From the IMG/VR virus record IMGVR_UViG_3300044655_000391: a stretch of 20,000 nucleotides of DNA; one strand, 5' to 3'. This document shows, one piece after another, positions 747 through 5,019 of this stretch. Source of the DNA: an uncultured virus (IMG/VR IMGVR_UViG_3300044655_000391) (Duplodnaviria; Heunggongvirae; Uroviricota; Caudoviricetes). Made by a program: the position numbers and the translations under genes. Under the pieces are notes generated by a model that was not told where the DNA came from, made no database searches, and was given only the letters and a program-made list of their open reading frames with translations. Position 1 is the stretch's first letter; each line of letters begins with the position of its first letter.

Positions 747-911
747 ATGTATACATATAAATTATTGCCACCATATCAAGACAAACCATCAAAAAATATT
801 TTGCGGTTACCAGACAATGCTTATATCCCATTCGACCCAGCTAACACCGATTACCAACAATATTTAAAATGGTTAGACGAAGGCGGAGTTCCGCTTCCAG
901 CAGACGAATAA
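747..911 (+). CDS. Small 54-aa fibre-associated (assembly/chaperone-like) protein, absent from ORF track
   Basis: Manual translation MYTYKLLPPYQDKPSKNILRLPDNAYIPFDPANTDYQQYLKWLDEGGVPLPADE*. Starts 2 nt after the fibre stop. Clear paralog at 3496..3657 (IPFDPANTDYQ.YLKWL...LPADE). Confidence 0.85.
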   Translation: MYTYKLLPPYQDKPSKNILRLPDNAYIPFDPANTDYQQYLKWLDEGGVPLPADE

Positions 912-2093: not shown

Positions 2094-2306
2094 ATGAATT
2101 TAATTAGACATTGCATAATAGACACAAACACAAATTTAGTCGTAAACATTATTGACTACGAAACAGAACAAACAGGTGTACCACCTGGTTTAGAAGAACA
2201 TTTACTTTGTGTAAAGTCAGATACAGGTCAAATTGGTGGAACTTACGAAAATGGTGTAATAACTAATCCACCACAACCTGAACCAATTATTCCAGGAGTA
2301 GTATAA
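2094..2306 (+). CDS. Small 70-aa fibre-associated hypothetical protein
   Basis: AAGGA SD upstream. TAATG coupling to the next gene. IIDTNTNLVVNII...IGGTYENGVITNPP pattern is typical of small partner genes of Gly-rich fibres. Confidence 0.65.
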   Translation: MNLIRHCIIDTNTNLVVNIIDYETEQTGVPPGLEEHLLCVKSDTGQIGGTYENGVITNPPQPEPIIPGVV

Positions 2307-3493
2307 TGCCATTAACACAGGTACCACCAGCGCTTTTAACTTCCACTACAGGAACAGGATCAACTGTAGTTTTAAGTGCGTCTCCTTCATTTACAGGAAC
2401 AGTAACAACTCCTGGTGTAACCTTTTCAGATGCAAGTTCTCAGACTGCTGCAGCGTCACCTTATGTGCTAAAGAACCGTATTATAAATGGTGATATGAGG
2501 ATTGACCAAAGAAATGCTGGTGCTGCAACTGCAAACACAATTAGTGGGTATACATTAGATAGATGGCAAGTGATTCAATCTGTAACAGGAAAATTGATAG
2601 CACAACAAAATGCTGCGGCAGTTACTCCCCCAACAGGATTTACAAATTATTTAGGTGTTACATCTCAATCAAGTTATTCAATTTTGACTGGTGATTACTA
2701 TGCAATTCTTCAACCAATAGAAGGATACAACATAGCTGATTTAGACTTTGGTAAAGCTACTGCCAAAACAGTTACTTTAAGTTTTTGGGTAAGAAGTTCA
2801 TTAACAGGAACATTTAGTGGTTCTTTAAGAAATAGTGCAGCAGATAGAAGTTTTCCATTTACTTATACAATCTCTGTAGCAAATACTTGGGAACTAAAGT
2901 CTGTAACAATTGCTGGCGATACATCAGGCACTTGGCTAACAACTAATGGAATTGGTCTATATATATGGTTTAGTTTAGGAACTGGTTCTACATATTCTGG
3001 AACTGCTGGTGCTTGGGCTGCAACAAACTATGTATCAGCCACAGGTGCAACTTCAGTAGTAGGCACTAACGGAGCTACCTTCTACATCACAGGTGTCCAA
3101 CTAGAACAAAACACATCAGCAACACCTTTTGAACGCAGACTTTATGGTCAGGAATTGGCTAATTGTCAGAGGTATTATTATACAATTGGTGGAAATAACT
3201 CATTTGAAACATTTGCTACTGGTGTCATTCAAGCATCCAATAATGCAGAGTTTATATTAAATATGCCTGTTACTATGCGAGGTTTGCCTACAGCGACTAT
3301 CGGTGGAACTGCTGGAAATTTTATTGTTAATAATAATTCTTCGTTTACTCCATCTGTAATCAGTTTTGATATTTACGCTTTAAATACTTTGAGGATTTCA
3401 GCAACAATATCTGGAGCAACGGCTGGTAATGGAACATATTTGAGAGCAAACAACACTCTTTCGGCAAAAATTAATGTATCTGCGGAGTTATAA
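2306..3493 (+). CDS. Tail fibre / receptor-binding-like protein with carbohydrate-binding-like beta domain
   Basis: KNRIINGDMRIDQRNAG, YTLDRW, TLSFWVRSS, ITGVQLE, ATPFERR, ELANCQRYY motifs. Short Thr/Ser-rich N-terminal stalk (TGTGSTVVLSASPSFTGT). Paralog of 1..744. Confidence 0.75.
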   Translation: MPLTQVPPALLTSTTGTGSTVVLSASPSFTGTVTTPGVTFSDASSQTAAASPYVLKNRIINGDMRIDQRNAGAATANTISGYTLDRWQVIQSVTGKLIAQQNAAAVTPPTGFTNYLGVTSQSSYSILTGDYYAILQPIEGYNIADLDFGKATAKTVTLSFWVRSSLTGTFSGSLRNSAADRSFPFTYTISVANTWELKSVTIAGDTSGTWLTTNGIGLYIWFSLGTGSTYSGTAGAWAATNYVSATGATSVVGTNGATFYITGVQLEQNTSATPFERRLYGQELANCQRYYYTIGGNNSFETFATGVIQASNNAEFILNMPVTMRGLPTATIGGTAGNFIVNNNSSFTPSVISFDIYALNTLRISATISGATAGNGTYLRANNTLSAKINVSAEL

Positions 3494-3495
3494 TT

Positions 3496-3657
3496 ATGTA
3501 TAAACTATACAAAAGTAGAGAAGGAATGGTTCAAGTTGTTATTCGCCTATCAGATAACGCTTTCATCCCATTTGACCCAGCCAACACAGACTACCAAGCC
3601 TACCTTAAATGGCTTTCAGAATCTCCTGATAATAAACCATTGCCAGCAGATGAATAA
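3496..3657 (+). CDS. Small 53-aa fibre-associated protein, absent from ORF track (paralog of 747..911)
   Basis: MYKLYKSREGMVQVVIRLSDNAFIPFDPANTDYQAYLKWLSESPDNKPLPADE*. Same TAATTATGTATA junction after the fibre gene as at 742-753. Confidence 0.85.
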   Translation: MYKLYKSREGMVQVVIRLSDNAFIPFDPANTDYQAYLKWLSESPDNKPLPADE

Positions 3658-4120
3658 TACTGTTTGCGTATATTGGATTAGACATAAAGACCATACTGAT
3701 ATATTTAATCAGGGTTATGTTGGAATATCTAATAATTTTAAAATAAGATTAAGAGATCATAAAAGCAAACCTACTAATTTACATATGAAAAATTCAATTA
3801 ACAAGTATGGATGGGTAAACTTAATCAAAGAAAAAATATTAATTGCTACACAAGAATATTGTGTAATGATTGAAAAACAATTAAGACCTAATGATTTTAT
3901 TGGTTGGAATCAAGCTGCTGGTGGTGGAGTTCCGCCAAAATCTAAAAAAGGTATGGGTAAAGGTAGAAAATTATCAGAAGAAACTAAACTAAAAATTAGC
4001 TTAGGTGGAAAAGGAAGAAAATTTAGCATGGAAGCAAGACAAAAGATTAGACAAGCAGCTATTGCACAATGGGCTAGATATCGTGCTAATGGCAATAAAC
4101 ATTTACCTGCGGACGAATAA
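3650..4120 (+). CDS. Free-standing GIY-YIG homing endonuclease with NUMOD3-like DNA-binding repeats
   Basis: From ATG 3650: VYWI...GYVGIS (GIY-YIG variant), R.RDH, I.KYGW, conserved Glu (IEK), GWN..GG, then KGRKLSEETKLKIS and KGRKFSMEARQKIR. Visibly more AT-rich than flanking genes. The track's 3536 start only overlaps the preceding small gene. Confidence 0.85.
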   Translation: MNNTVCVYWIRHKDHTDIFNQGYVGISNNFKIRLRDHKSKPTNLHMKNSINKYGWVNLIKEKILIATQEYCVMIEKQLRPNDFIGWNQAAGGGVPPKSKKGMGKGRKLSEETKLKISLGGKGRKFSMEARQKIRQAAIAQWARYRANGNKHLPADE

Positions 4121-5019
4121 TGTTCGGGTACGCTGCCTTTGCTCAACCTACATTTGCTGGACTAGGCGGTAATTCGTTCGTACTATCTTTAACTGAAGAT
4201 ATTATTATGGCTGACGCAAGTAGCCAAGTCTTTGTATTTAATGAAGCCGTCTTTGAAAATGTTGTGATGGATGATATTGATGCTACAACAGGTGATTTCT
4301 TCGGGCTTATTAATGAATTTGTAGCAATGAACGATACTAATGCTGTTACAGCTCAGTTTGCATCAAGCATTACAGAAAATTCAGTATTAGCCGATACACC
4401 TACAATAGCAGCACAGTTCGCTGTAAGCAAGGCAGAGAATGTAGTTATGGACGATGTAAGAGATGTTTATTTTGCAGCGTTACAAGAGCGTGTTGAGCCA
4501 TTTACGATGGCTGATATTGTTTCTATCGCTGCACAGTTTATAGCTAGTTTGAATGAAAACAGTGATCTTGCAGATACACCAAGTATCACAGCTCAGTTTG
4601 CACAAAGTGTGACTGAAAACATGACAATGGCAGATGCAGCTACGGTATTAGCTGATTTTGTAGCATCAAGAACTGAAGATGTTACCATGGAAGATATTGA
4701 AACCATTATCTCAATATTCTTATTTACAATTACAGAGAATCTTGATTCAGCAGATGCAAACTCTGTTATTACGAATTACCTTGTATCTTTAGATGAAAAC
4801 GTTAATTTAGCTGATACTTCTAGTGTAACAGCTCAGTTCCAGGCTTCTATTATTGAAACATTTGCACTATTAGATTCCCAATTCCCTCGTGGATGGTTTA
4901 AAATAAACGATGACCAAGCTGTTACATGGGCAGCAATAAACAATGATAATTCAGTATCTTGGACTGAAATTAATAACAATGTACCTACTTCATGGACAGA
5001 TATAAATAATACTCAATAA
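4120..5019 (+). CDS. Acidic repeat-containing virion structural (fibre shaft-like) protein
   Basis: MFGYAAFAQPTFA N-terminus. Twelve in-phase 20-aa repeats and four C-terminal 11-aa W-x-x-I-N repeats. TAATG-coupled to the upstream gene. Confidence 0.65.
   Translation: MFGYAAFAQPTFAGLGGNSFVLSLTEDIIMADASSQVFVFNEAVFENVVMDDIDATTGDFFGLINEFVAMNDTNAVTAQFASSITENSVLADTPTIAAQFAVSKAENVVMDDVRDVYFAALQERVEPFTMADIVSIAAQFIASLNENSDLADTPSITAQFAQSVTENMTMADAATVLADFVASRTEDVTMEDIETIISIFLFTITENLDSADANSVITNYLVSLDENVNLADTSSVTAQFQASIIETFALLDSQFPRGWFKINDDQAVTWAAINNDNSVSWTEINNNVPTSWTDINNTQ
4177..4875 (+). repeat. Degenerate 60-bp (20-aa) tandem repeat, 12 units
   Basis: Glu at residues 26, 46, 66 ... 246, with no indel. 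Consensus approx. (AQ)F-x3-hydrophobic-x-E-N-x2-(M/L)-A-D. GAA/GAG codons recur exactly every 60 nt. Confidence 0.85.

Follow-up and report, generated by a model that had tools for sequence, protein, structure and literature searches.

How can a selfish gene enter an operon of overlapping genes without breaking either neighbour? The question is raised by a nuclease-like gene in a virus record of 65,576 bases from an uncultured lake phage, of which a stretch of 20,000 nucleotides was analysed (the window; all positions refer to it and all features lie on the + strand). A first-pass annotation made from the letters alone had proposed that the nuclease gene inserted inside a small gene, supplied a recoded 3' end for it and was itself fused to the original 3' end. 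The nuclease gene indeed sits within the 3' end of the small gene, with a substitute ending ahead of it and the native ending displaced behind it, and we consider it probable that it homes by cutting empty alleles near Gly-Asn-Thr-Pro (GNTP) codons, which are then repaired by copying the element. This arrangement would explain how the gene entered the operon with both neighbours intact.

Organization of the locus

The region 2306-5019 has the appearance of a phage structural operon. A tail-fibre-like gene (2306..3493; phrog_4492 tail fiber protein, E 8.9e-53) is the 5' neighbour of the adjoining small gene, which encodes 53 aa (3496..3657; PHROG 20370/34019, function unknown). The small protein had no Pfam or NCBIfam match, every one of its Atlas matches was 'hypothetical', and fold searches were weak with a best Foldseek E of 0.23 and a best Z of 3.8. 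The nuclease ORF of 156 aa (3650..4120) follows, and its stop is overlapped by the start of a downstream gene of 299 aa (4120..5019, MFGYAAF...), for which family searches gave no match. No promoter-like site was seen within 3300-4300.

Re-reading of the sequence bore out the basic description given in the first pass. The small gene ends NKPLPADE* (* denotes the stop), the ORF with its ATG at 3650-3652, within GAT-GAA, ends NGNKHLPADE*, and the stop of the latter is coupled to the 4120 gene by TAATG. The nuclease gene lies between two 3' ends of the small gene, and the ORF of the host gene is complete. A paralog of the small gene at 747..911, which has no nuclease on its 3' side and reads GGVP in its tail, ends PLPADE* as had been noted. 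The gene behind this paralog (region ~912-1274) is listed from 972 (GTG), but its true start is likely a more upstream ATT-type codon preceded by an AGGAG motif. The same ATT-type-start arrangement (ISHFAKV...) is present at locus L289, and the homolog at L059 is ATG-started (MGHFAKV...).

The occupied junction is not an assembly artefact, because three lake runs that are not flagged as source (X4, X6 and X11) also have contigs with it. Support from these runs is piecewise, the whole occupied stretch being spanned by none of the listed contigs: an X4 contig covers 3580-4283, X6 contigs cover 3578-3728 and 3721-4461, and X11 contigs cover 3550-3890 and 3957-4255. A joint left by precise deletion was not found among the lake-run contigs, which cannot show absence. 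X4 also shows a loose end, at position 3615, with the reading of a GNTP allele. In run X1 the summed contig depth was 244-339 over a conserved block of the small gene (3546-3627) versus 9.7 over the element; thus many other small-gene alleles in the sample share this block. Annotated phage genomes yielded a single match, of 57 nt.

The nuclease ORF

The ORF scored 24.1 bits against Pfam GIY-YIG PF01541 (cut-off 22.6) and 21.4 bits against NUMOD3 (cut-off 20.4). The best fold match of its structural model (mean pLDDT 74.6) was the catalytic domain of I-TevI, 1ln0_A, with a Z of 8.6 and an rmsd of 2.6 over 78 residues. Foldseek likewise ranked I-TevI at the top, yet with an E of only 0.021, and a sequence search of solved structures returned no significant match. 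Residues Y8, Y23, G25, R33, H37, E75 and N87 were invariant across 40 nuclease homologs; we take them to be the catalytic-type residues by I-TevI numbering. Helices are predicted at 110-120 and 127-146, and together with NUMOD3 they make up separate C-terminal DNA-binding modules as in I-TevI. Judged by these features, the product is an I-TevI-like GIY-YIG protein with a catalytic domain and intact catalytic-type residues. Towards its C-terminus it has the KIRQAAIAQWARYRANGNKH module of the family, which continues in frame into the native tail of the host gene.

Homologs begin MNNTV, MSNTV or MVSVYW, which backs the start at 3650. For the same reason the TTG of a 194-aa ORF (3536-4120) was rejected as the real start. 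A group I intron was dismissed as well, as the DNA encodes the host ORF without interruption and the insert is filled wholly by the nuclease ORF; furthermore, there was no Rfam match in 3300-4500 at E up to 1. No splicing is involved, in line with the intronless invasion suggested in the first pass.

Native and element-borne 3' ends of the small gene

The two copies of the tail share 21/27 nt, and 14/18 of the last 18 nt, where the four differences are all synonymous third-position changes. Empty alleles tell which copy is native. A search with the 4120 gene returned 46 loci, of which 42 were examined, the four left out beginning inside the gene. At least 9 of these 42 have the small gene coupled by TAATG straight onto the 4120 gene, which is the junction the first pass expected in uninvaded relatives. 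At L046 the small gene precedes the 4120-gene homolog with a longer tail, at L057 an unrelated HNH-AP2 gene lies between the two, and in at least 7 close relatives another gene is upstream of the homolog. The 3' end of the nuclease gene matched the coupled empty alleles exactly over the last 16-18 nt in 9/9 cases, while the upstream copy matched the same nine for 6 nt only. The native end of the small gene has thus been displaced to 4103..4120 (LPADE*), where it now provides the stop of the nuclease and the TAATG overlap; the suggested fusion to the original 3' end holds. The duplication is shorter than first thought, however. LPADE* is the only host-derived part of the downstream copy, and the additional 'NK' match was rejected as a host-derived duplication, since NGNKH recurs throughout the element family and the empty alleles have GN-TP or GN-EP instead. 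Both junctions fall within the coding sequence of the small gene.

The downstream copy equals the tail of an empty allele at other loci too, namely L291/L292 with L273, L081/L288 with L169, L304/L299 with L260 and L287 with L226; L026 and the empty L203 both have the tail TPEQAD*. The match was weak at L029, L296, L086, L088 and L310, and for 11/26 occupied loci no empty allele was found above the score cut-off.

The upstream copy behaves differently. Over 3618-3707 the window and L289 have the same sequence, but their small genes differ 5' of a conserved block, and the gene downstream at L289 is a homolog of the one that follows the paralog at 747. L313 has a similar SPDN tail in front of a third downstream gene. 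From this comparison the element starts at ~3622, just past a conserved Glu codon, and ends at ~4102. Its 5' part is the replacement tail SPDNKPLPADE* (3622..3657), which has no GN-TP codons and contains the start codon of the nuclease at 3650. The SPDN tail precedes three different downstream genes (window, L289, L313), and a GNTV tail present in 7 loci precedes 5 different genes. These alignments show the upstream tail travelling with the element and the downstream tail belonging to the locus, in line with the proposal that the element supplied a recoded 3' end. On this comparison the small gene at 3496..3657 has become chimeric, with a resident 5' part and a 3' tail brought in by the element. 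Upstream of the insertion point lies the block DYQAYLKW-x-x-E (3589..3621), which is defined by column conservation in 129 element-free alleles and is likely to serve as the upstream homology arm and as the left half of the target site.

The first pass had also singled out the Asp codon GAT at 3649-3651, which is GAC in the other two copies. The difference is real, but GAT is not rare: it is used by 31/84 element-free alleles versus 19/23 occupied ones.

A family of elements behind one small gene

Searches with the C-terminal module yielded 26 distinct loci; a 27th (L115), missed by the pattern, stays outside the counts. All 26 elements lie directly after the small gene, and L115 fits too. Three heads are joined to the module: GIY-YIG in 12 loci, HNH in 6 and a head we call VMEHN in 8. 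The VMEHN head had no Pfam nuclease match, its PHROG homing-endonuclease matches were weak, and its profile match to the GIY group was driven by the shared C-terminus. On the protein level there were 101 homologs, 53 of them with the module. Because 45/53 of these end in a small-gene-like tail versus 0/48 homologs without the module ending in PADE/PAEE, the resemblance of the tails is beyond chance. The first pass had conceded that LPADE ends on homologs at unrelated loci would speak against it; L002-L025, where the same GIY head sits at other junctions with no such module, do not end in LPADE, and the relatives that end in the tail are all behind the small gene.

The downstream genes of the occupied loci form 15 clusters. 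We count ~13 unrelated ones, because L310, whose start was miscalled, goes with L086, and the N-termini of the MFG genes suggest that these are related. In the tree, near-identical elements stand before different genes (L082/L288/L299; L081/L304). Flanking genes on either side are not conserved among occupied loci, which leaves the small gene as the sole shared target. The elements either overlap the substitute tail with their start or begin 1 nt past its stop. At the other end the nuclease frame runs onto the host tail and borrows the host stop in 19/26 cases (L287 included), and in 7/26 it is out of frame or goes past the tail. Between sister elements the sequence varies on the 5' side of the DYQAYLKW block and agrees on its 3' side, a pattern suggestive of short co-conversion and a cut in the vicinity. 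The 26 loci are not independent of one another. Tandem arrays of elements were not seen among them.

Some related genes deserve mention. The same GIY-YIG head with other C-termini (L007-L025) occupies the junction of another pair of conserved genes; start and stop codons mostly overlap there, and the LPADE tail is missing. At L001:3614-4276, one small gene downstream of the element, there is a second nuclease-like ORF with a GVY/YVGKG-type N-terminus and a CPHC C-terminus. L332:2331-3256, on a Candidatus Methylopumilus MAG contig, comprises a tail-fibre-like gene, a small gene with a GNEV tail and a related GIY head; the contig points, if weakly, to the group of hosts that related phages infect.

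The predicted target site

Gly-Asn-Thr-Pro, spelled AAYACNCC, occurs in 100/130 element-free alleles, a set consisting mainly of 123 loci from a scan of 9/64 parts. It occurs in 0/26 occupied upstream tails. These carry nine other spellings: GGVP in 8, GNTV in 7, SPDN in 3, GGQP and GNQP in 2 each, and GNEP, GGIP, DGNQ and GNLP once each. The nominal Fisher p of 2e-14 is overstated because the loci are related. By hand estimate, nine independent tails would give ~2e-6, and three heads only would give 0.23^3 = ~0.01. Two unrelated nucleases behind the same gene, at L057 and L251, served as a control and keep GNTP (2/2). The GNTP codons are therefore likely to mark the target. Resistance of the upstream tail to cleavage would be predicted from the same association, which also points to the insertion site as the putative site of cleavage.

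The octamer alone cannot be the whole site, because it is contained in the element 3' ends of L085 and L086. Against the predicted target, 30/130 element-free alleles are also without GNTP. Which domain sets specificity is blurred by L332, where the GIY head is related but has another C-terminus and lies behind a GNEV allele. The sequence GGNAAYACNCC is absent from the 65.6-kb genome, which is not significant (~0.4 expected by hand estimate).

The two control genes, an HNH-AP2 gene at L057:2350-2999 and another GIY-YIG-like ORF at L251, sit directly behind the small gene, so that this junction attracts several selfish nucleases.

The paralog at 747-911 is of interest in this regard. Its GGVP tail is almost identical to the element-borne tails of the HNH-head elements L029 and L296, and tails of the GG type occur in 4/130 element-free alleles. 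The paralog is likewise likely to be without the target, and it is possibly an immune, element-free relic. A check for self-immunity found a second small-gene copy in only 1/15 element-bearing records (n=1).

Proposed mechanism and alternative explanations

Upon co-infection the nuclease would cut an empty allele, aimed probably by NUMOD3 and the C-terminal helix module. The left broken end would pair with the DYQAYLKW block of the donor and copy the substitute tail and the nuclease gene, while the right broken end would pair with the old host tail at the 3' end of the donor element. The recipient's own tail would then become the C-terminus and stop of the nuclease, and the start overlap of the downstream gene would be preserved. 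The substitute tail, having no Thr-Pro codons, would escape cleavage. An immune empty allele would result from repair on the substitute tail alone or from a deletion between the tails. With both arms inside the small gene, no homology in the downstream gene would be needed and any copy of the family could be entered.

Even with the architecture and the target as proposed, the elements may have reached their many downstream contexts by ordinary module shuffling at the conserved tail or by recombination between occupied alleles via the shared C-terminal module, not by ectopic homing. We regard this as quite possible, although it is not the explanation we expect. The same TPTPADEGTQ tail stands before different genes in the empty L169, L198 and L260. 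Downstream genes vary also among empty alleles sharing one tail, so changes of context need not be driven by the nuclease. Furthermore, the C-terminal module of the window (3992-4099) agrees with the HNH-head elements L026 and L029 at 89 and 88 of 108 nt but with L289, which has the same head, at only 73 of 108 nt, a sign of module shuffling among elements at one site. On the other hand, the 3' junction differs by codons and frame among elements, as would be expected of repeated independent joins, and the portion of PMC2988022 available to us documents one-sided microhomology repair for T4 homing.

In 77/130 element-free alleles the next gene starts at -1 or -4 of the small-gene stop. Keeping the native tail downstream is therefore a simple form of harmless insertion. 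By the same count any insertion must duplicate or break an end, and the duplication might be a mere footprint of insertion at an overlapped junction by a T4-type free-standing enzyme that cuts elsewhere, the lack of GNTP being inherited from a few founders. T4 enzymes of this kind cut hundreds to thousands of bases off and often overlap upstream ORFs, as the available text of PMC2988022 describes. Yet a footprint would have to accommodate nine different substitute tails with three heads, all without Thr-Pro. Crossovers repeatedly replaced the small gene to within a few bases before the site and never through it, GNTP is intact where the unrelated nucleases have entered this junction (2/2), and the non-conserved flanks leave only the small gene as a common target. 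We consider a footprint unlikely.

That the nuclease is inactive or domesticated and its fused PADE tail has a protein function, e.g. in tail-fibre binding, is very improbable: the host tail is kept in frame in most elements, but the 7/26 exceptions, the tracking of tail sequences with the locus and the invariance of the catalytic-type residues argue against it.

Homing into the GNTP site of empty alleles may have wider consequences. Tentatively, a portable C-terminal module of ~45 residues may aim all three heads at one site in the small gene, with non-allelic homing driving the exchange of tail-fibre modules and seeding immune alleles such as 747-911. The small gene could, as an equally tentative part of this reading, be a widespread closer of tail-fibre modules in freshwater phages. 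If the shared C-terminal module sets the specificity of both GIY-YIG and HNH heads, it would be a compact DNA-binding part for nuclease design. From the naturally occurring alleles the target is predicted to within a few codons, so that the 156-aa enzyme and short substrates would suffice for testing. For annotators it follows that the C-termini of such nucleases are host sequence.

Comparison with known systems

The comparisons below extend to the portions of the cited papers available to us. The closest in logic are the WHO elements at yeast FBA1, for which a resistance-conferring upstream 3' end next to a nuclease and the same homing model have been shown (Coughlan et al. 2020, PMC7282813), and which a preprint places in a third, rare category of homing elements (Osborne et al. 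2026, bioRxiv 10.64898/2026.08.13.744650). In both systems a nuclease gene is combined with an upstream host-gene 3' end, the old 3' end is displaced downstream and there is no splicing; the displaced end of the recipient acts as the second homology arm in WHO and is proposed to do so here. Resistance has been shown for WHO (PMC7282813) and is predicted here. WHO elements encode LAGLIDADG-zinc finger proteins, carry fragments of ~400 bp and accumulate in tandem arrays at a single essential gene. Unlike these, the phage elements have GIY-YIG or HNH heads, a displaced tail of at most ~35 nt and usually no stop of their own; they overlap their neighbours at either end, and the gene family that hosts them is a variable one of phages. 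Membership in the WHO family was rejected, since the locus combines a GIY-YIG and NUMOD3 protein with a phage host gene, not a LAGLIDADG/intein-zinc finger protein with FBA1.

Gene hybrids of fungal mitochondria have a similar layout, e.g. atp6 of Allomyces macrogynus and atp6, atp9, cox2 and nad3 of Glomus (PMC3630166), rps3 of Ophiostoma and cox2 of Phlebia (PMC4019555); the layout is also found in PMC7487136. There, as here, a foreign C-terminus restores the host gene and is followed by a LAGLIDADG or GIY-YIG ORF, and of the two copies it is the displaced native C-terminus that agrees better with empty relatives. The mitochondrial cases lie in organelle genomes, have duplicated ends of ~50-280 bp, and their displaced end is described as a leftover. 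In contrast, the displaced end in the phage is translated as the C-terminus of the nuclease and bears the start overlap of the downstream gene.

The seg and mob genes of T4 share with the present locus intron-free phage GIY-YIG or HNH nucleases, starts that overlap upstream stops, and hybrid enzymes (segF) (Edgell et al. 2010, PMC2988022). They are intergenic and cut at a distance of hundreds to thousands of bases (PMC2988022), whereas here the insertion is within coding sequence, the end is duplicated and the predicted target is at the insertion point. Duplicated ends do not figure in the available text of this review of free-standing enzymes ('duplicat', 0 matches in PMC2988022). The end-replacing layout was not found described for phages in the literature covered, which was largely open-access main text, nor in the available text of PMC1524935 and PMC12724721.

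Taken together, the layout is known from yeast and from fungal mitochondria. The present locus adds a multi-locus family with three heads and a prediction of the target at the level of codons, and it appears to place a logic of the WHO type in phages, with other classes of nuclease and very short arms.
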